64,000 nucleotides of DNA from Nitrospirota bacterium (GTDB lineage: Bacteria > Nitrospirota > UBA9217), in contig JAYTJE010000024.1 of assembly GCA_043731355.1 (NCBI GenBank), positions 421 through 64,420 of the forward strand. Direction: 5' to 3'. The translations under genes and the position numbers were made by a program. Below, piece after piece: positions 28,332 through 44,722 of this stretch (the first letter of the stretch is position 1; every line of letters begins with the position of its first letter). Under the pieces are notes generated by a model. The model was given only the letters and a program-made list of their open reading frames with translations, did no database searches and had not been told where the DNA came from.

Positions 28332-28340
28332 AAAACTCCT

Positions 28341-29108
28341 TTAAAACTGGTACGTCTTCCCTTCCTGCAATACTTTCACGTTCTTCCGGCCCAGCGCCCG
28401 GAGCTCACTGATAACTTTTTTCTTGTGCACGGGTTTGATATGGTAGATGTAGATCGGCACCGTGCTCTTCACCTTGGCTTTGGCGAGGTCGGCATGGAGC
28501 TGTGCCGGAGTAAAATGGCCGCTCAAACCGGCGACGACGTCCAGACTGTTCGGAAACGAGGTGTCCACGATGATCGCCTTGAGTTTTTTTGCTTTTGCCG
28601 CCACCCGCCAGAGACCTTCGTTGGGGCCGGTATCGGCGCTGTAGATTATCGTTGACCGGGCATCGCTCACCATGAATCCCACCGCGGGTACCGGATGGTT
28701 CATCGGGATGGCCTGCACCGTGAGCCCGGCCACGAATATAGGAATCCCCGCGGGAAAAGGCTTGTAGGCCAGCACCGGATTCTTCGCCGTCGGGATTTTG
28801 GTGAAATCCGGCCAGATCAGGTCGTTCATCAGGTGCTTTTTGATGGCGTCGATCACTTTGGGGATGGCCCGGACATTGACCGGCTGTTTAATGCGGCCGA
28901 TGATGTTGTCCGCAAGGAACAGCAGCGCTTTGATGTGATCAAGGTGGGTATGGCTGATAAATATATCGGTTATCCTGCTCTGCGCCTGGATGCTTAAGGC
29001 CGCGGTTATGGTTCCGGCATCCAGCATGACGGTATCGTTCACCAGAAATCCCGGCGGATTGTGGCCTATCGCTTCTGAACCGGAGCAGCCCAGTATTTTT
29101 ACCTTCAT
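28341..29108 (-). CDS. MBL-fold class-II 3',5'-cyclic-nucleotide phosphodiesterase-like protein
   Basis: HTHLDH metal-binding motif, 255 aa. Confidence 0.6.
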   Translation of the reverse strand: MKVKILGCSGSEAIGHNPPGFLVNDTVMLDAGTITAALSIQAQSRITDIFISHTHLDHIKALLFLADNIIGRIKQPVNVRAIPKVIDAIKKHLMNDLIWPDFTKIPTAKNPVLAYKPFPAGIPIFVAGLTVQAIPMNHPVPAVGFMVSDARSTIIYSADTGPNEGLWRVAAKAKKLKAIIVDTSFPNSLDVVAGLSGHFTPAQLHADLAKAKVKSTVPIYIYHIKPVHKKKVISELRALGRKNVKVLQEGKTYQF

Positions 29109-29173
29109 GCAACCCCCCTCGTTGAGCGCATCATAAATTTTAAGGCAGCCCTCTAAACCCTGCAGCCGTCCTC

Positions 29174-31069: not shown

Positions 31070-31113
31070 ATTCTCTCCTCCAACCCGGACAAACTGGAGC
31101 CAAACCTTTTTAC

Positions 31114-31211
31114 CACGAAGAGCACGAAGTTCACGAAGAGAAAAACTGAACCCCATTATTTAAAAACCAAAAACGAACTCCTTCGTGATTTTCGTGACCT
31201 TCGTGGTAGAT
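31114..31211. repeat. ~98-bp palindromic MITE/REP-like element, copy 1 (TIR TTTTACCACGAAG...CTTCGTGGTA; each arm carries three NNCACGAAG 9-mers)
   Basis: Read directly; a related copy at 57134-57232. Confidence 0.7.
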
Positions 31212-31273
31212 TTTCTGCTCATGTGTGAAGAATTCTATTTTTTAAGTTACTCTGTATCTCCCTTGCCATGACG

Positions 31274-31918
31274 CTACGCCATTTCCCCGAAGATTTCCCG
31301 CATTTCGAGATAGCGGACCAGCTTGTCAACCTGTTCCTGGTTCATGATATGGACCTTGTCCTCACTGAGGTTCACGATCCGGACGCTGGCGAGTTTTTCC
31401 AAAATAGTCCTGGCCTGGGCGGCCTCGATGCCGGCCACGCCGGCAAGGTCGTCGACGGTCATGGTAAACCCGCCGCCCTGTTTGTTGTCACGCACATGCT
31501 TCGCCAGGATGCTCACGAGCCGGCTCGTATTGTCCTTGATCATCAGCGATTCCATCTGGTCGTTGGTCTCGCGCAGCCGGTCGGCAAGCCGTTTGATGAA
31601 CCGGACCGCGATCTCTGCGTTGCCCCTGATCAACGCATCAAAGGTCTTGCGGTCGATCATGAGCATCTCGCATTCTTCGATGGTTTCCGCCGAGGCGGAG
31701 CGGGGCTTGTCGTTCAGTATGGCCATCTCGCCGAAGAACTCGCCCTTTTCAAGCGTTGCCAGCGTCTTTTCCACGCCGCGGATCCGCTTGCTGATCTTCA
31801 CCCTGCCGGACTGCAGGATGTACATTTCCTCGCCCCGGTCGCCTTCGTTAAAGAGCACCGTGCCTGGCGGGATTTTTCTGCCGAATTTTGAATACAGCTG
31901 GACCTGGACCTCGCTCAT
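31274..31918 (-). CDS. Crp/Fnr-family cNMP-binding transcriptional regulator
   Basis: cNMP-binding domain (FGEMAIL...RSASA) plus C-terminal HTH. Confidence 0.8.
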   Translation of the reverse strand: MSEVQVQLYSKFGRKIPPGTVLFNEGDRGEEMYILQSGRVKISKRIRGVEKTLATLEKGEFFGEMAILNDKPRSASAETIEECEMLMIDRKTFDALIRGNAEIAVRFIKRLADRLRETNDQMESLMIKDNTSRLVSILAKHVRDNKQGGGFTMTVDDLAGVAGIEAAQARTILEKLASVRIVNLSEDKVHIMNQEQVDKLVRYLEMREIFGEMA

Positions 31919-31977
31919 ACAAACCCCCTTGGTAGTTGGTCAACGGCCGGAATTACAGTATAGGATAACGGGTAGTA

Positions 31978-33726
31978 TCACCCGCCCACGATCGTAATAT
32001 CGCCCGCTTCACATGCCCGGAGAAAAGCATCCACGATCTCCGGATCATACCACGCGCCGGAGCAGCGCCGGATCTCCCCAGTTGCGGATTTCCAGTCCGC
32101 GGCCTTGCGATAGGGGCGGTCGGTCGTGATGGCATCAAAGGTATCGGCGATCGCAATGATCCGCGCATGGATTGGAATAGTTGCTCCTTTGAGGCCGTCG
32201 GGGTAGCCGCTGCCGTCCCATTTTTCGTGATGGGCGCGCAGGACCTTACTGACATCTTTCATCTGTTTAATATGAACGAGGATGTCCTCGCCCACCAGTG
32301 GATGCTCGCGCATGTGGCAGATTTCCTCGTGAGTGAGCCCGCCCTCTTTGAGCAGCACACTGTCCCTGATTCCGATCTTCCCAATATCGTGCAGCACCGC
32401 CGCCAGGCGGAGCGCCTCCACGTCGTTCAGCGACAGAGACATATGCCGCGCGATCGCCGCGCTGTACTCAACCACCCGCTTGATATGGCCGCCCGTATAC
32501 GGGTCCTTTTTCTCTACCGCGGCCGCGAGCGCCTCGGCCGTGTTAATGAACGTTTCCTTGAGTTCGGCATAGAGATGCGCGTTCTCGAGCGCAACCGCCA
32601 CCTGATTCGCCAGGGTCCAGCAGACTTCGAGGTCGTCTTCGGTAAAAAGCGCACCGTCCTTCTTATTCACGGCCTGGAGTACGCCGATCACGCCTCCCCG
32701 GGAGCGCACGGGCACACAGACCATGTTCCGGGTTATGAAATCCGTGATCGTCTGGGCGCGCCGGAAGTACCGGGGATCATTCTGCACATCATTGATCAGC
32801 GCGGGCTGGTCGTTCGCCGCTACCCAGCCGGCAATGCCCTCGCCCATTTTGAGCCGCATCTGTTTGACCTGCAGCTCCTTTTCACCGAGCGCCACTTCGA
32901 AATAGAGGTCCTTGGTCCGCTCGTCCACGAGCAAAAGCGAGCCCACTTCGGCGCCCAGCAGACTGGTCACCGCCTCGATGGCGCGCTGGCGCACCTCCCG
33001 CTGGTTCAGCGTGGAGTTCAGGACCATGGCAAGCTCCAGCTGCGTTGCCCGGCGCTGCGCCTCCAACCTGCTGCCGGACAGGAGGACCGTGTACGCTACG
33101 TCCAGAGCGAGCTGCCCGGCAAGCGTATCGAGCATTTCCTTGTCTTCCCTGCCAAAGGGCTTGCCGATCGTTTTGTTAATGAGCTCAACCACGCCGATCA
33201 CGCCGCCCGAGGTCGTAAGCGGCGACGCAAGGATATTGCGGGTGGGAAACCGCATCTCCGCGCTGATCTTGCTGCTCCACTTCGTGTCCCTGGCCACATC
33301 GGAGCTCAGATACGTTTTGCCAGTCTTGAACACCCATCCGGCGATGCCTTCGTCAAGCGCCATGCGCCTGCCGATGAGTTTCTGAGCGCCCGGGCCGGCG
33401 CTGGCCCGAAACACCAGGTCCTCGCCGTCATGCATAAGAATGGACCCGGCCGCGGTGTTGGTAAGTTTGAGAATCACGGTGAGATAATTGGAGAGCAGGG
33501 TGTCCAGTTCATCAGGACCGATGTTCTTGCTGGTGAGCAACTCCTGCTTGACCTTCTGAAGCAGGACCATCTTTTTGAGCGCGCTCAGTTCGGCGCGGAG
33601 AGCCGTCTGGTTTTTCCTGGAAACCGATTTTTTCACAACAACCGGTTTCCTTGCCGCCGGCACGATGCGGCGGGACAGGCTCCCCGCCCTCCGGACCTTG
33701 CTGACCGCCTTGCTTTTTTTAGTCGC
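31978..33726 (-). CDS. GAF-GAF-HD-GYP domain phosphodiesterase
   Basis: Two GAF-like regions; HD motif AAVLHDIGK and GYP motif WDGSGYPDGL. Confidence 0.8.
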   Translation of the reverse strand, partial: ATKKSKAVSKVRRAGSLSRRIVPAARKPVVVKKSVSRKNQTALRAELSALKKMVLLQKVKQELLTSKNIGPDELDTLLSNYLTVILKLTNTAAGSILMHDGEDLVFRASAGPGAQKLIGRRMALDEGIAGWVFKTGKTYLSSDVARDTKWSSKISAEMRFPTRNILASPLTTSGGVIGVVELINKTIGKPFGREDKEMLDTLAGQLALDVAYTVLLSGSRLEAQRRATQLELAMVLNSTLNQREVRQRAIEAVTSLLGAEVGSLLLVDERTKDLYFEVALGEKELQVKQMRLKMGEGIAGWVAANDQPALINDVQNDPRYFRRAQTITDFITRNMVCVPVRSRGGVIGVLQAVNKKDGALFTEDDLEVCWTLANQVAVALENAHLYAELKETFINTAEALAAAVEKKDPYTGGHIKRVVEYSAAIARHMSLSLNDVEALRLAAVLHDIGKIGIRDSVLLKEGGLTHEEICHMREHPLVGEDILVHIKQMKDVSKVLRAHHEKWDGSGYPDGLKGATIPIHARIIAIADTFDAITTDRPYRKAADWKSATGEIRRCSGAWYDPEIVDAFLRACEAGDITIVGG

Positions 33727-34549
33727 CATGTCCCGCCAGTACCCCCTGTTTAAGCGCCTTGACGAAGGCCGCGGACTTTTCGACAAGGTCTGGAAAACCG
33801 CCGTTCTCTTCGATCACCTTCACCAGAGCGCTGCCCACGATAACACCGTCGGCGCCCCACCGGGCAACCTGCGCTGCCTGGTCCGGCGTTGAAATGCCGA
33901 ACCCGACAGCCACGGGTTTGTCCGTCATGGATTTGATCCTCGTGAGTGACTCCTGGATCGACTGCTGAAGCCCGGTCCTCGCCCCGGTCACACCGGTCAG
34001 AGAGACATAGTAGACGAATCCCTGAGACAGCTTCGTCACTAATTTTATGCGTTCGTCCGTGCTCGTTGGCGCGAGCAGGAAGATCATATCCAGTCCGGCC
34101 TTCTTCGCCAGCGGGGCAAGGGTCCCTGCTTCTTCAGGCGGCAGATCGGGAAGAATGATCCCGTCCAGACCCGCGGCGACCGCGTCGAGAACAAAGCGTT
34201 CCTCGCCGTAATGAAAAATCAGGTTGTAGTAGGTCATGAGAATGAGCGGTATCCTGCTCACGGTACGCACATCCGTCACCAGCGACAGGACGTCGGCGAT
34301 GCTCGTACCATGCTTGAGCGACCTGATGGCCGCCTTCTGGATCGTCGGCCCGTCGGCCAGAGGGTCGGAAAAAGGAGCGCCGAGCTCGATGATGTCCGCG
34401 CCTGCCTTTTCGAGAGCAAGGACAAGCTGCTTTGTTGCGGCCATATCCGGGTCCCCTGCCATGAGGTAGGGAATGAGGGCAGTTTCGTTCTTTTTCGTGA
34501 GTCGGTTGAACGTGTTTTTTATTCTCGACATAATTTTCCTAAATGACAC
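33719..34549 (-). CDS. trpA: Tryptophan synthase alpha chain
   Basis: TrpA signature LIPYLMAGDP...ELGAPFSDPLADGP. Confidence 0.95.
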   Translation of the reverse strand: MSFRKIMSRIKNTFNRLTKKNETALIPYLMAGDPDMAATKQLVLALEKAGADIIELGAPFSDPLADGPTIQKAAIRSLKHGTSIADVLSLVTDVRTVSRIPLILMTYYNLIFHYGEERFVLDAVAAGLDGIILPDLPPEEAGTLAPLAKKAGLDMIFLLAPTSTDERIKLVTKLSQGFVYYVSLTGVTGARTGLQQSIQESLTRIKSMTDKPVAVGFGISTPDQAAQVARWGADGVIVGSALVKVIEENGGFPDLVEKSAAFVKALKQGVLAGHGD

Positions 34550-34646
34550 TTACCGTTTATAGATTTCTTTCCGATCCGTTCCTTGTTATCAGCATCAAGC
34601 TTCTGAATGTCTTTTACCGCTCTCCTCGTATAGACAAGCTCATACT

Positions 34647-34868
34647 TCATTTACCGAAGACCTCTTTATGGGTCTTCACTCGTCCTGCCTTGTAATCAGC
34701 TCTCGATTCCTTGATACCAACCAGATACTCGGGCGAGGTAGCGGCGAGCAGGTCTTCAAGAAAGACATCCCGCTCTTTCTTTTTCATATCTTTCACAGCT
34801 TTTATTATCTCTTCCTGGGAAACTGTTACTTTGACAGCGCTTAACATTTGGCGCCTCCCTGCGACCAC
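34647..34868 (-). CDS. Small antitoxin-like protein (C-terminus resembles Phd/antitoxin tails), orphan
   Basis: 73-aa ORF; weak family resemblance only. Confidence 0.3.
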   Translation of the reverse strand: MVAGRRQMLSAVKVTVSQEEIIKAVKDMKKKERDVFLEDLLAATSPEYLVGIKESRADYKAGRVKTHKEVFGK

Positions 34869-34876
34869 CGCGTAAC

Positions 34877-35722
34877 CTACCGTACTATCTTATACACTGC
34901 CGTTGCTTCTGTCCAGTCCGTAGGTTCAAGCTGGTTCAGTTTCTTGACCAGGTCGCTGATCATGCCTGTTGACTTCGCATCGTACACCTTGAACATCCCT
35001 TCCTGGAATCCCAGCGGCACGATCGCTTCTTCTTTCCTCGTTGCAATGACTTTTATTCGTTCCTCAGCCACCGTCCCCTTAAAGCTGGGAAGAAACATCG
35101 CCTGCAAACGCACCGGGCTGTTAGCTGGCGGAAATTCGTAGGCTTTCGAAAGCAGCAGCCGGTTGTCCCTGTTCGTCGAGTTCGGCAAGAGCAGCGTCAC
35201 CGAACCGTCAGCCGCGATGGAGAAAATATAAACATAACAGTCGCTGTTCGACTGATAGATGATCGTTGTTTCCTCGCCCTCTTTAAGCACGGATTTTGAG
35301 AGGGCAAGCTTCAGTGACAGGCCCTGGCCCTTCTCCGGGTACACCGGATCGATGAGCGCCCTTATCTTCACCCGGTAGAGATTGCGGTCCTTCTCATCCC
35401 AGCCCTCGGACAGGACGTCCATCTTCTCGATCTTCCCGCGCACCGCCGCATAGACGAGATCGTCGGCAACCTGGAAGTTCGAGACAAGGGTGTGCGACTT
35501 GATGAATGCGCCCACCGCCTGTTCGACCGCCCTGCTCTGGGCATCGCGCTTTGCCCGGTCTTTGACTTCTTTCAGCGTATCATTATCGCTCTGCGATGCC
35601 TCGCCCGTGGCCTCGACCCAAAGCGGCCTGTCCGCGCCGGAGGACAGCAGGGGGATGGCGAGAAATGCAAATATTAAGCAAGCTCTTTTCAAGAATCCCC
35701 CCCTAATCTTTTCCCGGCCCAA
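34877..35722 (-). CDS. Secreted LPP20-like/DUF4384-like protein (family usually paired with peptidase C14 domains)
   Basis: Signal peptide; N-terminal LPP20-like region; C-terminal DUF4384-like region; adjacent to caspase gene with 20-nt overlap. Confidence 0.5.
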   Translation of the reverse strand: MGREKIRGGFLKRACLIFAFLAIPLLSSGADRPLWVEATGEASQSDNDTLKEVKDRAKRDAQSRAVEQAVGAFIKSHTLVSNFQVADDLVYAAVRGKIEKMDVLSEGWDEKDRNLYRVKIRALIDPVYPEKGQGLSLKLALSKSVLKEGEETTIIYQSNSDCYVYIFSIAADGSVTLLLPNSTNRDNRLLLSKAYEFPPANSPVRLQAMFLPSFKGTVAEERIKVIATRKEEAIVPLGFQEGMFKVYDAKSTGMISDLVKKLNQLEPTDWTEATAVYKIVR

Positions 35723-37001
35723 TCAACTGCGGCGTCTGTTCATTGTTGTACTGTTTCCGCGCAATGCGCTCCACCTGGGGCTTCATGTAGCTGTAGATGT
35801 CCTTCACTTTGAGAGAGCCATCAGGCCGCACCACGTCCTCGTTCTTGATGCTCTTCAGGAAAAAGTACGTAAACAATCCATGCCCTTTTTCTTCATAGGT
35901 TGAGCTTATCTGGTCGCCTGATGCTGCGGAAAGGACTGCTATCTTTTGAGGTATTTGCAAACTCTCCATCTGCATTACCAAGGGTCTTGCACCCTTTGCA
36001 AGGACACTCCTGCCGCCCGCGCCTGAAAAGCAGGAATCAAGCGCAACGATGATTTCCTTTGCCTGAAGTTTTCCAAGATTTTCATAGAGCCGCTTTAAAG
36101 AATATCCTGTCTGGTCAATAAATGATGGGTCGCCGTCATAGGGAACAAGGTAGGCATCACCTGTTTTTGGATTCGGCGCGCCGTGTCCTGAATAGTAGAT
36201 AAAAACGGAACTATCTTTTTCGACATTATTCCAGAGCCACTTTTCAAAGTATTTTGCGAAATCTACATTAGTCGCATGCTCATTCAAAAGCGTAACTACA
36301 TTTTCCTCAGGATAGCCCATTACCTTTGTGAGATATTCTGTCATTGTCTGAGCGTCCTGTGTTGCATAATCGGCCTTTGGAAGTTTCTGGCGGTAGTTCT
36401 CTATGCCGATGACTATGGCGAAGGAGTTCTTATTGGGCTTTGCTTTGATTGAAGGGAGCTCATCAACGTCGGATTTGATAGCCGATTTTTCCTCAAAAAC
36501 AGAAGCAATCGGTTTTTTATCCTTTGCATAAAGGTTCTTATATTGCATTTCTTCCGCTTCTCTAAGTATGCGCACGATAACCGTTTGACCTTCTTTTTCT
36601 GCAAGTTGCAATGCCGTTCCCTTGGGGCTGCTTTGTGTGAGGTCAGCTCCCCGTTCAAGCAGGAGTTTCACGACATTTGCATTGCCATTACCAACCGCCA
36701 AATGTATAGGTTTCCAATTGTCCATACCCAAATTGGGATCAGCGCCTTTATCAAGCAAGAGGCGTACTATATCTAAAGAGGCGCAGCACTTATAGAGCAC
36801 CGCCTCATATAAAGGCGTTACACCAAACAGTCCTCGTTCATTCACATCAACGCCTTTATTTAATAGGGCTTCCACCTCTTTAATATCTCCTCCATGTGCT
36901 GCTGTTCCAAGTTGTGTTATTGTTGCACACCCTGTCATCGTCATGCTCAAAACCAGGATAAAGATTACACCGATTAAAAAAACTAAATTATGCCTTTTCA
37001 T
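35703..37001 (-). CDS. Lipoprotein with ankyrin repeats and a C-terminal caspase-like (peptidase C14) domain
   Basis: Lipobox MTGCAT; ~3 ankyrin repeats; catalytic dyad motifs YYSGHGA and DSCFSGAG. Confidence 0.8.
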   Translation of the reverse strand: MKRHNLVFLIGVIFILVLSMTMTGCATITQLGTAAHGGDIKEVEALLNKGVDVNERGLFGVTPLYEAVLYKCCASLDIVRLLLDKGADPNLGMDNWKPIHLAVGNGNANVVKLLLERGADLTQSSPKGTALQLAEKEGQTVIVRILREAEEMQYKNLYAKDKKPIASVFEEKSAIKSDVDELPSIKAKPNKNSFAIVIGIENYRQKLPKADYATQDAQTMTEYLTKVMGYPEENVVTLLNEHATNVDFAKYFEKWLWNNVEKDSSVFIYYSGHGAPNPKTGDAYLVPYDGDPSFIDQTGYSLKRLYENLGKLQAKEIIVALDSCFSGAGGRSVLAKGARPLVMQMESLQIPQKIAVLSAASGDQISSTYEEKGHGLFTYFFLKSIKNEDVVRPDGSLKVKDIYSYMKPQVERIARKQYNNEQTPQLIGPGKD

Positions 37002-37029
37002 CCCCCGCCTCCTACTCTCAAACTTAAAA

Positions 37030-37244
37030 TTATTTATATACGTTCCCTCTGAAATCCACTACATCAACGAAGATTGATTTGGACTCGATACGCGGCTTGA
37101 GGATAATTCTGATTTGCCTTTCCGGATGCGATAATAACCTGCCCAGTCGCCTTTTAATTTCTTAACGTCTATATTAATATTTGAGCCTGTTATCTTAAGA
37201 ATAAAATTTTTGATGGACCTCTCTGACTTTTTCTCTAACCCCAT
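37030..37244 (-). pseudogene. RelE/ParE-family toxin gene disrupted by a frameshift (KGDWAGYYRIRKGK then, in another frame, RIILKPRIESKSIFVDVVDFRGNVYK)
   Basis: Characteristic RelE C-terminal pattern recovered only by switching frame after codon ~46. Confidence 0.5.
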
Positions 37245-37292
37245 GTTCCTCTATAAAATCATCAGCTCTTTTTGAATATTCTACATTCCAGT

Positions 37293-37484
37293 TCATATGT
37301 TTATTGTTTCTGAATGAGCTGATCGTTTTTCCGGCTTTCCATAGTGGACTATAATCTCCCGCATTTCCTTATCAGAAACCTCCGGAAAAAACATAAGCCG
37401 CACTTTTGCTAATTCCTCTTCCAATGCCTCTTTCACCGATTCTTTTATAATAGTTTTTAGCTCCTCATGTCTTACAGTTTGCAT
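37293..37484 (-). CDS. Putative antitoxin (addiction-module component) upstream of the frameshifted RelE
   Basis: 63-aa acidic helical ORF immediately 5' of the toxin remnant. Confidence 0.35.
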   Translation of the reverse strand: MQTVRHEELKTIIKESVKEALEEELAKVRLMFFPEVSDKEMREIIVHYGKPEKRSAHSETINI

Positions 37485-37573
37485 ATCGAGAAACCTCCTT
37501 TCTGCTCCTTCCTATTTCTAAAAGAGCTAAGCCTATTTTATCACAACCAACTGCGGTCTATCTCTCAAATCAC

Positions 37574-39067
37574 CTATCTTTTCTTTCCCCCGAACAACTG
37601 CGGCGTCTGCTCGTTGTTGTACTGCTTCCTGGCAATGCGCTCCACTTGAGGCTTTACATAGCTGTACAGGTCATCGAGCTTGAGTGAGCCATCAGGCCTC
37701 GTTACATCCTCGTTCTTGATGCCCTTCAGCATGAAATACGTGAATAGCCCGTGCCCTTTTTCGTCATAGGTTGAACTGATCTGGTCGCCAGATGAAGCGG
37801 ACAGGACAGTCATATTGATGGGAAGGACAGCGCTGGCATTAAGATTCATTACGAGCGGCCGAGCACCCTTGGCAAGTACAGATCTGCCACCGGCGCCGGA
37901 AAAGCAGGAATCGAGCGCAACGATCACTTCCTTTGCAGGAAGCTTACTTAATGCAGAATACATTCTCTTCAAAGAGTACCCTGTTTCGTCAATAAAGGAC
38001 GGGTCGCCGTCATAAGGCACCAGATAGGCATCCGAGGTCTTGGGATTCGGCGCACCATGGCCGGAATAGTAGACAAAAACTGTACTGTCCTTCTCCACAT
38101 TGTTCGGAAGCCACTTTTCGAAATATTTTACCAAATCGACATTTGACGCATGATCATTCAAGAGTGTAATAACATTCTCTTCCGGATAACCAAGAGCCTT
38201 TGTGAGATAATCCGCTACCAGCTCCGCATCCTGCGTGGCAAAATCTGCTTTCGGAAGCTTCTGGCGGTATTGCTCAATGCCAATTACAATGGCGTAAGAG
38301 TTTTTGTTGTGCTTGACTTTTACCGCGGGGAGTTCGTCAACATCCGATTTGATGGCGGGAGATACTTCTGAAGCAAGGGTTTCAGGCTTGCCTTTAGCAG
38401 AAGCATAGGCGTGTATCTCACTGGAAGAAACCATAAGCTTGACACTCTCTTGTAAAGCAGAAACCATTGCTTTCGCCGCTGCATCCTCAACGCTTCCCTC
38501 GCTACCAGCCGATCCACCAGCCCAATTGAATGTTTTCCCGGCTATCTTAGGCGAACTTACAGTTTTTTCCCATAGCAGTATTCCTTGCTTATCGATAATA
38601 GTATATTTAAGCGAGACGCTCGCCAGTGCTTTAGCAGGCGCATTAAAAGGATTTAAAGAACGAGCTTTTACAAACTCGTAATAGAATTCTCCAATTTCCG
38701 GAGTAATAATAATATCAATGCCTTCTATATCCGGGTTCCCTTTCACTATTGTTACATTGTTAAAAGCATGCAAAAATATAGATGAAGCTCCTTTTTTAAA
38801 CAACTGCCCAAGAGGAAAAGTTCCTGTAAACCCCCAGCCCATCTGTGTTGCAGGCTTCCCGGTAAACGTGATATTTTCGATATTATCCGGCATTAGTAAT
38901 GCTGCATTCAGAGGAATCTTTTGCATAATCATAGGGGGCGGAACAGTAAAGTCAGATGGCACTTTGGCGATATAAGTTGCGCACCCTGTCATCGCCATGC
39001 CCACAAGCAGGATAAAGATTACGCTGATTAAAGAAATTACAGCCTTTGAACCACTCAATCTTTTCAT
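37574..39067 (-). CDS. Lipoprotein with unknown ~220-aa N-terminal domain and C-terminal caspase-like (peptidase C14) domain; paralog of 35703-37001
   Basis: Lipobox MTGCAT; caspase domain nearly identical to the ankyrin paralog (YYSGHGAPNPKT, ALDSCFSGAGGRSVLAKGARPLVM); ATG at 39067 preceded by GGAGG. Confidence 0.8.
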   Translation of the reverse strand: MKRLSGSKAVISLISVIFILLVGMAMTGCATYIAKVPSDFTVPPPMIMQKIPLNAALLMPDNIENITFTGKPATQMGWGFTGTFPLGQLFKKGASSIFLHAFNNVTIVKGNPDIEGIDIIITPEIGEFYYEFVKARSLNPFNAPAKALASVSLKYTIIDKQGILLWEKTVSSPKIAGKTFNWAGGSAGSEGSVEDAAAKAMVSALQESVKLMVSSSEIHAYASAKGKPETLASEVSPAIKSDVDELPAVKVKHNKNSYAIVIGIEQYRQKLPKADFATQDAELVADYLTKALGYPEENVITLLNDHASNVDLVKYFEKWLPNNVEKDSTVFVYYSGHGAPNPKTSDAYLVPYDGDPSFIDETGYSLKRMYSALSKLPAKEVIVALDSCFSGAGGRSVLAKGARPLVMNLNASAVLPINMTVLSASSGDQISSTYDEKGHGLFTYFMLKGIKNEDVTRPDGSLKLDDLYSYVKPQVERIARKQYNNEQTPQLFGGKKR

Positions 39068-39102
39068 AACCCACACCTCCTAATGTCGAAGCCTTTGAAC
39101 AT

Positions 39103-39245
39103 GCACCCTCAGGGTCAGGTCTTGAATCTTGACATTCCCTGGCGGGCGGTAATTTCACCGTTTAAAATGCGTAGACTTGCCGGTTCAAGCTTGCAGCTTG
39201 GACCACATCGTCACTATTTCGGTTCAATCTTCAAGATTGAACCAG
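39103..39245. repeat. ~140-bp island repeat, copy A (ends in perfect hairpin GGTTCAATCTT-c-AAGATTGAACC), upstream of caspase paralog 2
   Basis: ~85% identical to copy B at 40355-40495. Confidence 0.8.
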
Positions 39246-39258
39246 CGAAGCCGGCGGG

Positions 39259-39513
39259 CTATCTCGCTTTCGCCCGTCCACCAGTATGACTGGTAAGTCG
39301 TTGAGTCGAACGGGTTAAATCGAGCAACGACCTCAAGGCCTTGTTCACCGACTCTGAATTACCGAAGGCCTTGGCGACATCCGACTCCAAAACGACTACA
39401 TTCGCGCCTTTTTCAACTAACCGTTTATGATACTTTCCGCGAACGGCTTTCGAATAGTCGAAATCATATTCGGGACACAATTCATCTTTGAGCTTTTGAG
39501 TTTTAGCTTTCAT
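39259..39513 (-). CDS. BrnA-like (DUF4415) antitoxin-family protein
   Basis: EYDFDYSKAVRGKY and C-terminal ...ESVNKALRSLL pattern. Confidence 0.5.
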   Translation of the reverse strand: MKAKTQKLKDELCPEYDFDYSKAVRGKYHKRLVEKGANVVVLESDVAKAFGNSESVNKALRSLLDLTRSTQRLTSHTGGRAKAR

Positions 39514-39743
39514 GCGGCAAATACCTCTTCATGGGCCAGTCGTTTTGCGGCATACAGAAGCGAGGCCTTAATATCGTCGTTTGTAAGAAAAGGATAATCT
39601 TTTTTGAGTGATTCGGCAGTTGCGCCAAAGGCGATTTTTTCGACGATGAGCTCGACCGTCAACCTCGTCCCCTTGATGACAGGCTTGCCGAGCATAATTT
39701 TCGGATCTATAACAATCCGCCTGAGAAGGGTCTCTTCATTCAT
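39510..39743 (-). CDS. DUF433-family protein (antitoxin-like partner of DUF5615)
   Basis: LGKPVIKGTRLTV core motif. Confidence 0.6.
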   Translation of the reverse strand: MNEETLLRRIVIDPKIMLGKPVIKGTRLTVELIVEKIAFGATAESLKKDYPFLTNDDIKASLLYAAKRLAHEEVFAA

Positions 39744-40114
39744 TGCATATCCTCCATCATGGGCATTATTCTGAGTTTTTTTAGCGTTATCACGGTGAAA
39801 TGATTTTGCAGTTTGTCGTAATGCTTTTCAAGAACCTTCTCCATCAATTTAACTTTGTCATCGGAGTTTTGACCCTTCACCCGAAAAAGAATTATTCCGA
39901 CGGACAGCTTTTTTTGTAAGAACGTCAATTCGCCAAAATCCTTGTCATTGGTGATAAGAATTCGTTTTTCTTTCCGTGCAAGTGCCAAGAGATCTTTGTC
40001 GGGAATTTCGCAGTTATAATCGGGAATCCATTTTACATCATATCCACACCCGGCAAGAAAGTCCACGACCGGCTTTTCCATGTTCACGTCCGCCAGGAAT
40101 TTAATTCCGGTCAT
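39740..40114 (-). CDS. DUF5615 / Mut7-C PIN-like nuclease-family protein
   Basis: KFLADVN...GYDV and ILITNDKDFGEL motifs; ATGA overlap with the DUF433 gene. Confidence 0.55.
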   Translation of the reverse strand: MTGIKFLADVNMEKPVVDFLAGCGYDVKWIPDYNCEIPDKDLLALARKEKRILITNDKDFGELTFLQKKLSVGIILFRVKGQNSDDKVKLMEKVLEKHYDKLQNHFTVITLKKLRIMPMMEDMQ

Positions 40115-40283
40115 TGGGTTCCATCTCCCGAGGTTCTGCATCCATCATTTCGCAGAACGCTTTGCGCAAAAGGTTCCCCAGGTAAAGCCATTCAAGCCGC
40201 TTCTCCATCGGCATATCCTGATAGCGCTTTAGTTGCCCTTCAGTCAGCGAATAATCGTTGTAGCGTTTTACCGGTCTCATCAT
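40101..40283 (-). CDS. Hypothetical 60-aa protein, first gene of the DUF5615 module, starting 14 nt after the duplicated trpB 3' end
   Basis: ORF only. Confidence 0.25.
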   Translation of the reverse strand: MMRPVKRYNDYSLTEGQLKRYQDMPMEKRLEWLYLGNLLRKAFCEMMDAEPREMEPNDRN

Positions 40284-40289
40284 TCCGCG

Positions 40290-40354
40290 ATCCGCATTAG
40301 TTACAACTCCACACCCTTGATCTTAGCCACCTGCATCACGTCCTTGTCCCCGCG
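40290..40354 (-). repeat. 65-bp duplicate of the trpB 3' end including its stop codon (64/65 identical to 41027-41091)
   Basis: Direct comparison; would encode ...[17 protein letters not shown]. Confidence 0.85.
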
Positions 40355-40495
40355 AACCCCCTCAGGGTCAGGTCTTTAATATTGACATTCCCTGGAGGGT
40401 AACTTCACCTGTTAAAATGTGCAGTTTTGTTGGTTCACGCTTGCAGCTTGAACCACATCGTTAGTATTTCGGTTCAATCTACAAGATTGAACCAA
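40355..40495. repeat. ~140-bp island repeat, copy B (ends in hairpin GGTTCAATCT-aca-AGATTGAACC)
   Basis: Aligned to copy A. Confidence 0.8.
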
Positions 40496-40513
40496 CTAAG
40501 TGCCCAACATGGA

Positions 40514-40735
40514 CTATAACAACCTTACAAATTCTTCCACACTCATCCCCGCTTGTCTGATAATGGCGCGAAGCGTTCCCCTATCAAGCTCCTTGTGATC
40601 AGGAACAACAACCTGAGCAAAGGGATCATTTCTGCGCAGGATAACGTGACTACCCTCCTGACGTTTGAACTGAAAACCGGCCTTCTCCAGAGCTTTGATG
40701 CAGTCACGCCCTGAAAGTCTCGGCAGCTTGCTCAT
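40514..40735 (-). CDS. hicA: HicA-family toxin (mRNA interferase)
   Basis: 73 aa; LSGRDCIKALEKAGF...GSHVIL pattern. Confidence 0.75.
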   Translation of the reverse strand: MSKLPRLSGRDCIKALEKAGFQFKRQEGSHVILRRNDPFAQVVVPDHKELDRGTLRAIIRQAGMSVEEFVRLL

Positions 40736-40938
40736 ACAGCCACCAGAAGAGCATCAAAATGGTCTTCCGGCACAGGAATTTTATCATCCTCCAGTGCTGC
40801 CACATAGCCACTGATCGCTTCTTTAACATTAGCGATCGCTTCTTCTTTGGTCTTGCCTTGGCTGATGCAGCCAGGCAGACTGGGGCACTCAGCAACCCAA
40901 TAACCATCTTCGCCGGGATGTATAACCACCTGTCTCAT
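40732..40938 (-). CDS. hicB: HicB-family antitoxin (UPF0150)
   Basis: YWVAECPSLPGCISQGKTKEEAIANVKEAI pattern; GGAGGG SD before MRQVVIH. Confidence 0.75.
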   Translation of the reverse strand: MRQVVIHPGEDGYWVAECPSLPGCISQGKTKEEAIANVKEAISGYVAALEDDKIPVPEDHFDALLVAV

Positions 40939-40964
40939 ATTTGGCCCTCCACGTGTTATCAAAC

Positions 40965-41026
40965 GTTTTGCTGGTTTATGCTTGTTGCTTGAACTACATC
41001 GATGCTATTTTACTCCACAATCAAAA
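40965..41026. repeat. Partial, degenerate third copy of the 140-bp island repeat (middle section only) immediately downstream of the trpB stop
   Basis: ~70% identity to the central part of copies A and B. Confidence 0.5.
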
Positions 41027-41037
41027 ATCCGCATTAG

Positions 41038-42228
41038 TTACAACTCCACTCCCTTGATCTTAGCCACCTGCATCACGTCCTTGTCCCCGCGTCCCGAAAG
41101 ATTGCAGATGATCACTTTGTCTTTCCCGAGGGTCGGCGCAAGCTTCAGGCAATAAGCAACCGCATGGGCGCTCTCGAGCGCGGGGATAATGCCTTCGAGG
41201 CGCGACAGGAGGTCGAACGCCTCAAGGGCCTCTTCATCGACGGCATAGGTGTATTCCACGCGGCCGGTGTCGTGATACAGCGCATGCTCCGGTCCTACCG
41301 CGGCGTAGTCCAGCCCGGCGGACACGGAATGGGTCAGCTCGATCTGGCCGTGTTCGTCCTGCAGCACGAAGGTCTTGCAGCCCTGGAGCACCCCGAGGGA
41401 GCCGCCGGCGAAGCGCGCCGCGTGTTTGCCGCGCTCAATGCCGAGGCCGCCCGCCTCGACGCCGTACATCTTTACCCCGGCGTCTTCGAGGAACTCGGAG
41501 AACAGGCCGATAGCGTTCGAGCCGCCGCCCACACAGGCGACCAGCGCGTCAGGCAGCCGGCCTTCAAGTTTCAGGATCTGCTTCTTCGCCTCGCGGCCGA
41601 TCACGGACTGGAAGTCCCGCACCATCATGGGAAAGGGATGGGGCCCGAAGGCCGTGCCGAGCACGTAATGGGTGTTCGCCACGTTCGTGATCCAGTCGCG
41701 CATGGCCTCGTTGATGGCGTCCTTCAAGGTCTTGCTGCCGAGATCGACGGGCCGGACGATCGTGCCGAGGAGTTTCATACGAAAGACGTTCAAGGACTGG
41801 CGCGCCACATCATCGGTGCCCATGTATACTTCGCAATCAAGGCCGAACATGGCGGCTGCCGTGGCAGTCGCAACGCCGTGCTGCCCCGCGCCGGTCTCGG
41901 CGATCACCCGGGTCTTGCCCATGCGCTTCGCCAGCAGCACCTGGGCCAGGGAATTGTTGATCTTGTGCGCGCCGGTATGGGCGAGGTCTTCGCGCTTGAG
42001 GTAGATCTTCGCGCCGCCAAGATGGTCGCTCAGTCGTTTGGCATAATAGAGGGGCGTTGGACGTCCGACGAACTCCCGGAAGTAATAATCGAGCTCGGCC
42101 TGGAAAGCCTTGTCTTTCCTCGCCGCGAGATAGGCTGTTTCCAGTTCAGCTAAAGCCGGCATTAGCGTCTCGGGAGCGAACTTCCCGCCGTAGACGCCGA
42201 AATGTCCCTTTTTATCCGGGATACTCAT
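41038..42228 (-). CDS. trpB: Tryptophan synthase beta chain
   Basis: PLP-binding region HTGAHKINN, 396 aa. Confidence 0.95.
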
Positions 42229-42845
42229 GGTCGCGATACCCTCCGAACCTCGGTAATGAACTTCTTGAGCTTGGCATGGTCCTTAATGCCCTTTTCCCGC
42301 TCAACACCGCCGGCAACATCGACACCGTAAGGTTGAACGAGCTTCACTGCTTCGGCCACATTCTCCGGCGTGAGCCCCCCTGCCAGAATCACCCTGCCAA
42401 AGGTTTTTGCCACCACGGCCAAATGCCAGTCAAAAGTCGTGCCGGTGCCGCCGCGCACTCCGTCCTTATAGCTGTCCAGGAGGAAGGCGCCGACGTGAAA
42501 GTGCGCCATGTGCTTGATGCTCTCTTTGTCCTTGACCTGAAAGGCCTTAATCACGCGGGTTGCAAAGCGATCGCAAAACTCCGGGCGCTCATCGCCATGG
42601 AGTTGCAGCACCTTGATGCCGGTCGTGAACTGAATGTCCCGGATCTTTTCCTCGCGCTCGTTCACGAAAATGGCGACCGGCGTAATAAAAGGAGGCAGCT
42701 GGCGGATGATCTCGGCGGCCTTCCCGGGATCCACGTAGCGGAGGCTTTTCTTGTAGAAAATGAACCCCAGCGCATCGGCGCCGTTTTCGGCGGCCGCCAG
42801 CGCATCGTCCAGATTCGTGATACCGCAGATCTTGATCTTGATCAT
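42225..42845 (-). CDS. trpF: Phosphoribosylanthranilate isomerase
   Basis: [12 protein letters not shown]-terminus, TIM barrel; operon context. Confidence 0.85.
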
Positions 42846-42869
42846 AGATAACCCTTCTTTCGCCAAATC

Positions 42870-43646
42870 TTACGTTCCCAGCAACTCTTTCACCTTTTTC
42901 CCGATATCCTGTTCCCGCATCAGGCTCTCGCCGACCAGGATTGCGTCCACTCCGGCCTTTTCGAGCATCACCACATCGTCCCGCGTCCTGATCCCGCTTT
43001 CGCTCACCACCACGCGGTCATCGGGAATGTCCTTCAACAGGTCCAGAGTCGTCTGCAAGGTCACCTCGAAGGTCATGAGGTTCCGATTGTTGATGCCCAC
43101 GAGCACAGCGCCTGCCTGCAATGACTTATCCAGTTCCTTGTACGTATGCGACTCCACCAGCGCGTCAAGTCCCAGTCCGGCTGCGATGCCGAGGTAGTCC
43201 TGCATCTGGCCCCGCTCCAGGCAGGCCGCGATCAGCAGAATGGCGTCCGCCCCGAACGCTCGCGCTTCGTGGATCTGGTACTCTTCAATGATAAAGTCCT
43301 TCCTGAGCAGCGGAATATCCACGTGCTGTCTGATCCGGTCGAGGTAAGCCAGGTCTCCCTGAAAGAATTGTTTTTCCGTGAGGACCGAGAGGCAGGCGGC
43401 GCCGGACTCCTGATAAACGTCAGCGATTTTATCCGGGTCGAAGTCCTCGCGGATCACACCCTTGGACGGCGAAGCTTTCTTCACCTCGGCAATGAGCCGG
43501 ATGCCCGTACCCTGAGCAAGCGCCCTGCCGAATCCCCGCGTGGGAGCTGAATCAGCCGTCCGCTGTTTTATCTCGCTGAGCGGCGTTCTGCGCTTCGTTT
43601 CAGCCAGCTCTTCTTTTTTATATGTGATGATATCGTCTAAGATCAT
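42870..43646 (-). CDS. trpC: Indole-3-glycerol phosphate synthase
   Basis: IAEVKKASPSKG and LRKDFII motifs. Confidence 0.9.
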   Translation of the reverse strand: MILDDIITYKKEELAETKRRTPLSEIKQRTADSAPTRGFGRALAQGTGIRLIAEVKKASPSKGVIREDFDPDKIADVYQESGAACLSVLTEKQFFQGDLAYLDRIRQHVDIPLLRKDFIIEEYQIHEARAFGADAILLIAACLERGQMQDYLGIAAGLGLDALVESHTYKELDKSLQAGAVLVGINNRNLMTFEVTLQTTLDLLKDIPDDRVVVSESGIRTRDDVVMLEKAGVDAILVGESLMREQDIGKKVKELLGT

Positions 43647-43711: not shown

Positions 43712-44722
43712 TTATTTATTCGTGAACGTCTTCAACTCTTCCAGTTTTTTCATCGCCGCGCCGGAGTCGATGGATTCGGCTGCAATGGCGACCCCGGATT
43801 TGATGTCCGCGGCTTTGCCCGAGGCGGCCAGTCCCGCGGCCGCATTCAGGACCACGATATCCCGCCGCGGCCCCTTCTGTCCCTTCAGGATATCCACGGT
43901 GATCGCCGCATTCTCCTTCGCGTCGCCGCCCTTCAGGTCTTCTTTCCTCCCCGTGGCAAAGCCGAAATCCGTCGGATGGATGAAGTAGTCCTTCACCGCG
44001 TTGTTTTGAAACTCCGAGACCTTGGTGCGGTCCGTGATCGTGACCTCGTCCAGACCGTCCAGGCCGTGCACCACAAAGGCATGCTGTGCGCCGAGCTTGC
44101 CGAGCACCTGGGCCAGCGGCCCGGTCAAAGCTGCGTCGTATACTCCCATGATCTGAGCGGTCACCTTTGCCGGATTGGTGAGCGGCCCGAGGATGTTGAA
44201 GATGGTCCGGATACCAATCTCGCGACGCGGCCCGATGGCGTACTTCATGGCGAGGTGCATCATGGGCGCGAACAGGAAGCCGATCCCGACATCCTGTATA
44301 CACGCCTCGGCACGATGAGCGGGGATCTCGATGTTCACTCCCAGCGCCTGCAACACGTCGGCGCTGCCGCTCTTGCTCGACACCGAACGGTTGCCGTGCT
44401 TCGCCACGGTCACACCCGCGCCGGCCACGACGAAAGCAACGGTCGTAGAGATGTTGAACGTGTGGGCCATGTCGCCGCCGGTGCCGCAGGTGTCAACCTG
44501 ATACCGCGCGTCGAGCTTGATCGGAACCGCCTTTTCGCGCATGACCCGGGCGGAACCCGTGATCTCCTCGACGGTTTCGCCCTTCATCCGGAGCGCGGTG
44601 ATATAGGCGGCGATCTGGGCGTCCGTGGCCTCACCCTGCATGATCTCGCGCATCACCGCCTCCGCCTCGGCCTCGGTGAGATTTGTTCTTGTCACGACTT
44701 TTGCAATGGCTTCTTTGATCAT
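43712..44722 (-). CDS. trpD: Anthranilate phosphoribosyltransferase
   Basis: GTGGD and [15 protein letters not shown] motifs. Confidence 0.9.

Follow-up and report, generated by a model that had tools for sequence, protein, structure and literature searches.

Variable accessory gene cassettes separate trpB from trpA in an uncultured clade of Nitrospirota

The genes for the two subunits of tryptophan synthase, trpB and trpA, are separated by 6,506 bp (positions 34532-41037) in a 64,000-nucleotide stretch of DNA, referred to below as the window, from a Nitrospirota bacterium (GenBank assembly GCA_043731355.1, contig JAYTJE010000024.1). Both genes are located on the minus strand, and all notable open reading frames (ORFs) of the gap are co-oriented with the trp operon. 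Comparison with the same junction in related genomes indicates that the gap is not one mobile element; it is better described as part of a long-lived, eroding, and fluid gene store at the trpB-trpA junction of one Nitrospirota clade. Two kinds of content can be distinguished: a resident envelope module of caspase-like lipoproteins and a DUF4384 protein, and small selfish cassettes, mostly type II toxin-antitoxin (TA) pairs. The new observations are the duplicates of the trpB end that lie between cassettes, the variability of the site across the clade, and the wide distribution of the caspase/DUF4384 module, mostly away from trp.

Genes of the trpB-trpA gap

The flanking genes belong to the expected families. 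TrpB exceeds the cut-off of the curated equivalog model TIGR00263 (Table 1), and TrpA matches PF00290 with 319.2 bits (cut-off, 27) over model positions 1 to 255 of 259; it is 91 to 92% identical to the TrpA proteins of the closest relatives. The family models thus confirm the original prediction, made from the sequence alone, that trpE-G-D-C-F-B is contiguous and that trpA lies 6.5 kb away. Upstream of the array, trpD, trpC, trpF, and trpB follow each other in this order, free of gaps. Since trpA of the relatives begins with the ATG found here at 34531 (MSRIKNTF), the gap was delimited at 34532 and not at 34550, next to the upstream GTG at 34549. The gap is compositionally foreign, as a comparison with its flanks showed: its GC content is 0.463, versus 0.587 for trpE-B and 0.596 for trpA together with the downstream GAF-HD gene. 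At third codon positions, the GC content is 0.71 in the DUF4384 gene, a host-like value, and 0.34 to 0.59 in the caspase and TA genes.

The gene inventory of the original prediction was largely retained. Pfam searches recognized DUF4384 and FlgT_N in the secreted protein, both caspases, HicAB, and DUF5615/DUF433, whereas LPP20 itself was not matched; a ParE toxin with its antitoxin, a 60-aa gene (ORF60), and a 65-nucleotide (nt) duplicate of the trpB end had been overlooked.

Table 1. Features of the trpB-trpA gap and its surroundings, in window positions
Feature	Position	Strand	Remarks
Metallo-beta-lactamase-fold phosphodiesterase	28341-29108	-	Cyclic-nucleotide cluster; orthologues in L162, L166, and L175 match Pfam Anti-Pycsar_Apyc1/PDEase_II
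CHASE2 + nucleotide cyclase protein	29174-31156	-	Cyclic-nucleotide cluster
Cyclic nucleotide (cNMP)-binding protein	31274-31918	-	Cyclic-nucleotide cluster
GAF-GAF-HD protein	31978-33786	-	Cyclic-nucleotide cluster, directly after trpA
trpA	33719-34531	-	Intact, 270 aa; Pfam Trp_syntA, E = 1.8e-95
ParE toxin remnant	34519-34650	-	Internal deletion of ~165 nt; aligned with L124, L083, L006, and L085
Antitoxin of ParE pair, 73 aa	34647-34868	-	78-84% identical to genes preceding Pfam ParE_toxin in L124, L083, and L006
Secreted DUF4384 protein	34877-35722	-	FlgT_N/LPP20-like domain + DUF4384 beta-sandwich; constant partner of caspase genes
Ankyrin caspase-like lipoprotein, 432 aa	35703-37001	-	Pfam Ank + Peptidase_C14; lipobox Cys25, His273, Cys324
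RelE/ParE-like toxin pseudogene	~37030-37296	-	At least 2 frameshifts relative to an intact 88-aa homologue in L111
Antitoxin-like gene, 63 aa	37293-37484	-	77% identical to the L111 gene preceding the intact 88-aa toxin-like ORF
Caspase-like lipoprotein, 500 aa	37574-39076	-	Unknown N-terminal domain + Peptidase_C14; lipobox Cys32, His340, Cys391
140-nt repeat, copy A	39106-39250	-	Starts 15 nt after brnA stop; fold z = -3.5
Orphan BrnA-like antitoxin	39259-39513	-	84 aa; BrnT partner missing
DUF433 putative antitoxin	39510-39743	-	Pfam DUF433, E = 4e-20
DUF5615/Mut7-C PIN-like putative toxin	39740-40141	-	Likely start 40114; Pfam DUF5615, E = 6.4e-21
ORF60	40101-40283	-	60 aa, small helical protein, clade-restricted, next to trpB-end copy
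Duplicate trpB 3' end	40290-40354	-	54 nt coding + stop codon + 8 nt spacer; abuts copy B of the 140-nt repeat
140-nt repeat, copy B	40355-40500	-	Starts 20 nt after hicA stop; fold -52.1 kcal/mol, z = -6.4
hicA toxin	40514-40735	-	Intact, 73 aa; Pfam HicA_toxin, E = 7.8e-23
hicB antitoxin	40732-40938	-	ATG at 40938 gives 68 aa, as in L168; Pfam HicB_lk_antitox, E = 5.9e-10
Hairpin-2 fragment of 140-nt repeat	40965-41001	-	blastn 84% over 37 nt, E = 1e-4
Functional trpB 3' end + 11 nt spacer	41027-41091	-	Promoter-proximal copy of the 65-nt direct repeat
trpB	41038-42228	-	Intact, 396 aa; NCBIfam TIGR00263, 632.6 bits versus cut-off 392.45; Pfam PALP
trpF	42225-42866	-	Strong family match
trpC	42870-43646	-	Strong family match
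trpD	43712-44722	-	Strong family match

Two of the five TA pairs of the window, hicBA and DUF5615/DUF433, are intact; the remaining three are decayed, with brnA an orphan, the relE-like gene frameshifted, and parE partly deleted. HicA (80.8 bits) and HicB (39.8 bits with HicB_lk_antitox) both score above the family cut-off of 27, and their genes overlap by 4 nt. Comparison with the intact ORF of L111 (numbers preceded by L label the compared loci and assemblies; L161 is a viral contig) confirmed the predicted frameshifted RelE as a real pseudogene, but the name reflects a motif only, and the L111 homologue has no Pfam match. Similarly, the BrnA-like label is supported by 94 to 96% identity to the partners of Pfam-confirmed BrnT toxins in L009 and L082, although the protein itself lacks a Pfam match. 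The ParE assignment comes from the Pfam ParE_toxin match of the L124 homologue; the deletion in the window shifts the frame, so that the remaining ORF overlaps the trpA start by 13 nt. In their overlapping or abutting gene pairs and their Pfam matches (HicA, HicB, DUF5615, and DUF433), these cassettes resemble other type II TA modules, and the relatives carry ParE, BrnT, TumE, and MNT/HEPN at the same site. Unlike the usual modules, they are found inside an operon, three of five are decayed, and the neighboring trpA uses the ribosome-binding site of a cassette.

Homologues of hicA that are 88 to 90% identical are found in trp and non-trp contexts alike; look-ups of the exact TrpB and HicA proteins of the window gave no recorded entry. 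A second case of hicBA lodged in an operon was observed in L171 (4798-5222; also in L172 to L174), within a heterodisulfide-reductase-like/FlpD/MTHFR cluster of another organism. The HicA protein of L171 is 90% identical to that of the window, with 78% nucleotide identity over the hicBA pair, and no flanking direct repeats were found around it.

A search of 1.84 billion proteins yielded 19 close homologues and 37 cluster representatives of ORF60. In every context examined, ORF60 directly follows trpB or lies beside a copy of the trpB end. Its predicted structure consists of three helices (predicted local distance difference test score, 79.5), and no fold match was found for this model. The start codon of ORF60 is fused to a heptamer motif, GCGGATTGCGGAAT, which also fills the spacers of "empty" trpB-trpA junctions. 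A divergent version of ORF60 follows a DUF6036-like nucleotidyltransferase in a cassette of L009, L011, L015, and L110.

Both caspase-like proteins contain an MTGC lipobox and intact SGHG and DSCFSG motifs of the His-Cys dyad, and their Peptidase_C14 domains score 59.8 and 57.4 bits (57.4 for the 500-aa protein) against a cut-off of 21.4. The C14 domain of the ankyrin-containing protein is 74% identical to that of its 500-aa paralogue. The DUF4384 protein was used as a query to retrieve 80 metagenome loci, in nearly all of which its gene closes a co-oriented run with 0 to 6 genes for caspase-like lipoproteins; most copies are located away from trp, and no neighbors are conserved besides the caspase and DUF4384 families. 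The DUF4384 protein family comprises 801 matches, with 65 to 92% identity among the top 120. The module is present in hundreds of genomes, elsewhere in the chromosome. Both the number and the N-terminal domains of its caspases are variable, whereas the DUF4384 partner is unusually conserved. TA cassettes are interleaved with caspase genes also away from trp (L096, L094, and L111), so this association is a property of the module and not of the trp site.

The module may serve proteolysis in the envelope, with diversifying lipoprotein proteases that act together with one constant secreted scaffold, regulator, or substrate; confidence in this assignment is low. The common feature with orthocaspases and other Peptidase_C14 homologues that have accessory DUF4384 domains is the C14 domain with its His-Cys dyad. 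In contrast to them, the caspases of the window are lipoproteins whose signal is followed by an ankyrin or unknown N-terminal domain, and DUF4384 resides on a separate, far more conserved secreted protein that is encoded last in the array; each array contains one to six caspase paralogues. No published study of such an arrangement, caspase lipoproteins with a separate DUF4384 protein, was found in the literature searched, and sequence searches of the PDB with the DUF4384 protein and the 500-aa caspase returned only weak metacaspase matches. Scores of the two caspases with the model of EACC1-associated caspases of NTP-dependent conflict systems (NF047832) were 86.5 and 89.5 bits, below the cut-off of 140. 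In agreement with the earlier remark that the gene content fits no named defense system, PADLOC-DB v2 yielded only the generic models "caspase" and "Ankyrin" and PDC-M72A, the latter over the ankyrin region, and nothing for the other eight island proteins. The locus draws attention to this widespread and unstudied combination of caspase lipoproteins with variable N termini and one very conserved partner.

A separate observation concerns metagenome Ga0265292, in which a caspase/nucleotidyltransferase-like/ankyrin-caspase/DUF4384 gene run is found in a non-trp context (L096, 7197-10840), its ankyrin caspase being 75% identical to that of the window. The same metagenome contains trpB and trpA with a gene for a 217-aa secreted protein between them (L176, 10001-12965). 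Should the two contigs come from a single organism, the module would have changed its site within the clade.

The junction in related genomes

A TrpA-based scan with one genome per species placed the source of the window in a clade of uncultured Nitrospirota. In this unbiased genome scan, trpB and trpA are 28 to 77 nt apart in 12 of the 17 scorable relatives, and the junction is occupied in the other five: L015 contains a 0.73-kb cassette, and L006, L009, L011, and L012 contain caspase and/or DUF4384 genes. The inserts of the occupied relatives range from 0.5 to 7.7 kb and differ in content. More distant Nitrospirota retain an overlapping trpB-trpA junction (TAATG or TGATG). Thus, the original prediction was right in that an accessory insertion has broken the adjacency of the two genes, but this insertion is neither a single island nor peculiar to one genome, as the junction is occupied in many members of the clade, with overlapping but different content.

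Further occupied loci were found with the island proteins as queries. In L162, the closest relative with data (95% identity in TrpB), the insert measures 4.8 kb and consists of ORF60, DUF433, two ankyrin caspases, DUF4384, and an antitoxin. The 6.6-kb insert of L082 encodes ORF60, a DUF5615 fragment, DUF433, DUF2971, a DegP-like protease, a caspase, TumA/TumE, DUF4384, and BrnT/BrnA. ORF60, a DUF2283 pair, a caspase, and DUF4384 are found in L164, and ORF60, hicBA, DUF4384, an antitoxin, and ParE in L168; L166 has only ORF60 and a ParE remnant, and L175 has a single gene for a 217-aa secreted protein. A left edge of trpB-ORF60 is shared by L082, L162, L164, L166, and L168, and a right edge of DUF4384-antitoxin-ParE-trpA by L006, L083, L124, and L168, with ParE missing or eroded in L085 and L162. 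Such edges, shared across lineages, indicate that much of the island content is old and inherited. The prospect, raised with the original prediction, of a fixed ancient arrangement with the same content in close relatives and no flanking repeats was borne out halfway: the content is shared in part, whereas the sites do contain repeats and their arrangement varies.

Intermediates of erosion include 3' stumps of caspase genes in L085 and L110, a ParE stump in L166, and the decayed toxins of the window itself. The order of cassettes also varies: hicBA follows ORF60 in L168 and precedes it in the window. The two hicBA regions are 89% identical over 550 nt, two hairpins included (see below). In a neighbor-joining tree of TrpA, occupied and empty loci are interleaved, the window being sister to the empty L001, and the closest relatives are equidistant (approximately 91 to 95% protein identity) whether they are occupied (L162 and L082) or empty (L001 and L018). 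These patterns suggest an old insertion in the ancestor of the clade, followed by cassette turnover and deletions and probably by complete losses in some lineages. Alternatively, the junction may have gained cassettes repeatedly.

The same comparison bears on the idea that the trp operon has been functionally extended, with the caspase/DUF4384 genes and ORF60 recruited for useful co-expression and kept by selection. Co-orientation of all genes with the operon, the occurrence of ORF60 only at the trpB-trpA junction, the host-like codon composition of the DUF4384 gene, and the persistence of the arrangement across the clade are all consistent with it. However, 12 relatives lack an insert entirely, the content is different in almost every genome, and the caspase genes have been deleted in L085, L110, L166, and L168; in addition, the same module is found in unrelated neighborhoods in most genomes, and the remainder of the array consists largely of selfish TA genes, several of them decayed. 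Such an extension therefore appears very improbable.

Copies of the trpB end and the hairpin element

The hicBA cassette of the window is bracketed by two 65-nt direct repeats, identical at 64 of 65 positions (98%), one of which is the functional end of trpB with its spacer (Table 1). The copy extends from -54 to +11 relative to the stop codon and carries a window-specific GCT codon of the functional end, which indicates that it arose recently in this lineage. The other internal copies are too short to tell whether they originated in their own or in a foreign genome.

A search with an nhmmer profile of the last 63 nt of trpB detected such copies in at least 11 assemblies, all on the trpB strand; none were found on the opposite strand. 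Besides the single extra copy in the window, there are three clear copies and one weak copy just before trpA in L009, two each in L154, L162 (both full length), and L164, one each in L011, L093, L150, L151, and L166, and one weak match (E = 3.5e-4) in L082. Most are intergenic and located between cassettes, and the units that they bound can be as short as a single ORF60 (L150 and L154). The extents of the repeats range from 42 to 125 nt. One copy in L009 retains just the last 42 nt of trpB; those in L162 extend from approximately -65 to +5 and are embedded in a 125-nt repeat that also holds the 3' end of DUF433. No copy is present at the trpA boundary of the window, and most islands likewise lack one on the trpA side. 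The trpB-end pattern had no match in IMG/VR. Weak profile matches in L128 (1758-1783), L131 (3336-3360), and L139 (2238-2259) were rejected, as they correspond to the SGDKDMMQL motif of the 5'-3' exonuclease encoded by polA, which resembles the C-terminal motif of trpB at the DNA level.

The second type of repeat in the gap had been described as a private 140-bp repeat in three copies; it consists of two full copies, 86% identical (E = 7e-37), and one 37-nt fragment, and it is not private. Copy B contains two tandem 23-nt palindromes (GGTTCAATCT-TGT-AGATTGAACC and GGTTCAAGCTGCAAGCGTGAACC) and a third stem; the palindromes share their outer arms (GGTTCAA...TTGAACC) and differ by a compensated inner pair. 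The fragment lies between a remnant of native-type trpB-trpA spacer (41002-41037) and the hicB leader. Copies or parts of the element were also detected in L162, L168 to L170, L082, and L009, and in L168 to L170 it accompanies hicBA at the same site. It begins 15 to 38 nt after the stop codons of four unrelated genes in different genomes, namely hicA (window and L168), brnA (window and L009), a caspase gene (L162), and DUF433 (L082), and it lies just upstream of a trpB-end copy in the window and in L162. Palindromes of the REP/BIME type are dispersed in many intergenic copies across a genome; within the 64 kb covered here, the element is confined to the island, and among 161 loci the hairpin pattern was seen only in L009 and L161. 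An Rfam scan of positions 33000 to 43000 with E values up to 1 gave only a subthreshold COG2908 match inside trpF and none for the repeat. The element could be a terminator or RNA-stabilizing structure that travels with the cassettes, or it could be a recombination site.

Hairpin 1 (GGTTCAATCTTGCAGATTGAACCGAAAT) was found once, with 31 of 32 positions identical, in the 28-kb viral contig L161 (2649-2680; IMG/VR 3300037225_001478). It is intergenic there, 10 nt past a stop codon and amid other palindromic repeats, and the contig has no other similarity to the window.

Other short motifs recur at the junction. The "empty" spacers of the clade (28 to 77 nt) consist of AT-rich tandem heptamers, such as GATTGCG GATCTCG GATAGCG GATTGCG or four units of ATTCAAT; they are seen in L001 (1186-1247), L003, L007, L008, and L013 and in the window at 41002-41037 and 40284-40300, and this tract may be a scar or prone to recombination. 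GC-rich intergenic palindromes, GGATTCCCGC...GCGGGAATGAC or GGATTCCGGGTCAAGCCCGGAATGAC, are located just upstream of trpA in several relatives (L093, 10040-10140; L092, 1470-1510; L086, 960-1040; L082, 11385-11410; and L164, 11420-11500), and a different palindrome, TTGGGTTTCACTTCGTTCAACCCAA, follows the trpB stop codon in L009 and L085. These palindromes resemble repetitive extragenic palindromic sequences and may have a part in rearrangements.

Recurrence of these features also bears on the integrity of the assembly. The contig is of the metagenome type, and a 98%-identical repeat of 65 nt could confuse a short-k-mer assembler and produce a chimera through the repeat or through population variants. 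However, both types of outer junction (trpB-ORF60 and DUF4384-antitoxin-ParE-trpA) were seen again in assemblies made independently from different samples, the trpB-end repeats recur in at least 11 assemblies, and L168 to L170 have hicBA with the hairpin element at the same site. An artifact can accordingly be considered extremely improbable.

Possible origin of the array and expression of trpA

No recombinase was found among Pfam matches of any island ORF of the window, which agrees with the integrase-free content originally noted, nor in the island ORFs of relatives that were scanned or had precomputed Pfam assignments (approximately 25 islands overall, including L009, L082, L162, L164, L166, L168, and L175). 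None was recognizable among the large ORFs of the 64-kb window, whose ORF starts were inspected by eye only. The direct repeats expected of a site-specific integrative island, whether an integrative mobilizable element or a cis-mobilizable element, are present, in the form of the 65-nt repeat and its counterparts in other assemblies, but the recombinase that an integrative mobilizable element encodes (and a cis-mobilizable element by definition lacks) is absent from the islands. No IntI gene adjoins the array, and trpB, trpF, and trpC stand upstream in the place where a complete integron would have it. A crude scan of both strands for attC sites (RYYYAAC...GTTRRRY with a complementary inner box) gave no candidates; in the 140-nt repeat, a GTTCAAT-like box precedes an ATTGAAC-like box on either strand, which is not the R''-L''/L'-R' architecture. 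A tRNA-type integration site was ruled out, as a scan of the 30- to 48-kb region detected no tRNA or tmRNA gene. In blastn searches, the island DNA had no match among the INPHARED phages and, among the PLSDB plasmids, only a 67% match of hicBA to a cyanobacterial plasmid.

The reading that fits these results best, and one that seems somewhat more probable than the others taken together, is that of an accessory depot that has no mobility genes of its own, in which cassettes enter at the trpB stop codon and are shuffled by homologous recombination through the trpB-end copies. Cassettes would enter beside the stop codon, so that the newest would lie next to trpB, and each entry would leave a co-oriented copy of the last 42 to 70 nt of trpB, which would keep the gene intact. 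The copies, together with the longer repeats around them, would then serve as portable homology: unequal or Campbell-type recombination could duplicate, reorder, or delete cassettes, and the conserved trp genes on both sides could permit exchange among relatives. Such a homology-driven route, in which the island encodes no recombinase, appears to be the most likely mechanism, and the variable extents of the copies fit it better than they fit a fixed crossover point. Inside an operon, cassettes would be transcribed from the upstream promoter instead of their own, and imprecise deletion would be costly; TA pairs may add stabilization, by analogy with integron arrays, for which such an effect is established (PMC13108822).

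Several points weigh against this reading. The event that created the first trpB-end duplication has to be postulated, and a site-specific enzyme that acts in trans could likewise account for the strict co-orientation of the copies and for the 5' limits of many of them, which nearly coincide (approximately -54 to -65); with 64 kb of the genome in view, a recombinase could be encoded elsewhere. The count of occupied sites is biased upward, since metagenome loci were retrieved with island-protein queries. Sliding-window identity of the trp flanks to L162, L082, L018, and L001 gave no mosaic signal of recent import, in a test of low power because all four relatives are only 80 to 93% identical.

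A site-specific enzyme, the main rival to the homology route, would imply serial integration, with the last 55 to 70 nt of trpB as the attB site of a recombinase of the tyrosine or serine type whose gene is located elsewhere in the genome or on a helper element. Small circular cassettes with a matching site, perhaps including the hairpin element, would then integrate, regenerate trpB, and accrete in tandem, similarly to cis-mobilizable elements or to an integron with a gene end as its attI. This mechanism accounts for co-oriented copies between cassettes in at least 11 assemblies, and it explains their strict co-orientation and the similar 5' limits of many of them better than the homology route does. 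It is also in line with the cassettes of L150 and L154 in which ORF60 stands alone between two copies, with the weak copy directly upstream of trpA in L009, where the oldest attR would be expected, and with the position of the hairpin element, which, like a cassette-associated site, follows four unrelated genes and lies upstream of a trpB-end copy. The tandem ssrA islands of Dehalococcoides (PMC3146451) would be a precedent. Set against this are the lack of a recombinase in approximately 25 islands and of a recognizable one among the large ORFs of the window, inspected by eye only, repeat extents that vary from 42 to 125 nt and include ends of neighboring genes, the lack of a copy on the trpA side of most islands, the lack of an attC-like R''/R' architecture, and a hairpin element that has no Rfam match and occurs in some islands only. 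On balance, serial integration appears unlikely, if worth serious consideration. Still less probable is the related notion that the trpB stop region is the docking site of an undescribed cassette-capture system, with its recombinase elsewhere and the last ~60 nt of trpB as the site. Its cassettes would measure from ~0.25 kb upward and perhaps carry the 140-nt double hairpin at their 3' ends, and the end of an essential operon gene would serve as "attI"; if such a system existed, transcription of the cassettes would be guaranteed and imprecise deletion penalized. The choice between a recombinase acting in trans and homology-driven capture is what makes cassettes bounded by copies of the upstream gene end, with no integrase in approximately 25 examples, of general interest.

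In outline, the locus appears to be known in kind, with tandem islands at gene 3' ends and integron-like arrays as its analogues, whereas its target, cassette size, and repeat architecture differ. Blocks of tandem islands at gene 3' ends are approximately 10 to 30 kb long; those described here measure 0.25 to 5 kb. In Dehalococcoides, repeats of the ssrA 3' end mark the limits of tandem ssrA islands; certain blocks there lack integration modules and have been interpreted as cis-mobilizable elements (PMC3146451). Elements of this type, built by accretion, are the subject of a review (PMC5704250). As in those islands, the conserved gene remains intact, co-oriented copies of its 3' end separate accessory blocks of strain-variable content, and integration genes can be missing from blocks. 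Unlike them, the target is a protein-coding gene within a biosynthetic operon, none of the approximately 25 examples contains an integrase, the repeats have variable limits (42 to 125 nt, versus a fixed 20-bp core), and the distal boundary usually has no repeat. Sedentary chromosomal integrons and clusters of attC sites lacking integron-integrases, according to the features reported in PMC4889954 and PMC13108822, share with this locus co-oriented, small, mostly promoter-less cassettes with many TA pairs, a similar structured repeat after unrelated cassettes, and a location downstream of a promoter-bearing platform. In contrast to them, the array has no adjacent IntI, its hairpin repeat lacks the R''-L''/L'-R' architecture, its boundaries are copies of the upstream gene end and not attC sites, and it is located inside an operon, before an essential pathway gene. 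With no attC site in the crude scan, no IntI beside the array, and no integrase in the islands, the locus fits neither class.

Translational coupling of trpA to trpB is lost at the occupied junction. The AGGA ribosome-binding site of trpA, conserved also in L124, L085, and L162, is supplied by the 3' end of the decayed ParE cassette. The sigma-70-like site just upstream of the 73-aa antitoxin gene (34915-34887) is a match to the consensus only; promoters of this phylum may be of other types. Expression of trpA probably relies on read-through, on the promoter of the antitoxin-ParE pair, or on both, and it would require internal promoters of this kind should the double hairpins act as terminators. 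An effect of the island on trpA expression, which the original prediction took as certain, is plausible. The junction of two subunit genes of one enzyme, which are normally translationally coupled, can evidently become a long-lived landing pad for selfish and accessory genes while the pathway is kept.

As far as can be judged from ORF starts, the rest of the 64-kb window is core-genome-like, encoding Lon, RpoN, cobalt transport proteins, AccD, and others. Downstream of trpA, a cyclic-nucleotide gene cluster (27489-33786, minus strand; Table 1) has kept its synteny across the clade, and accD follows it.

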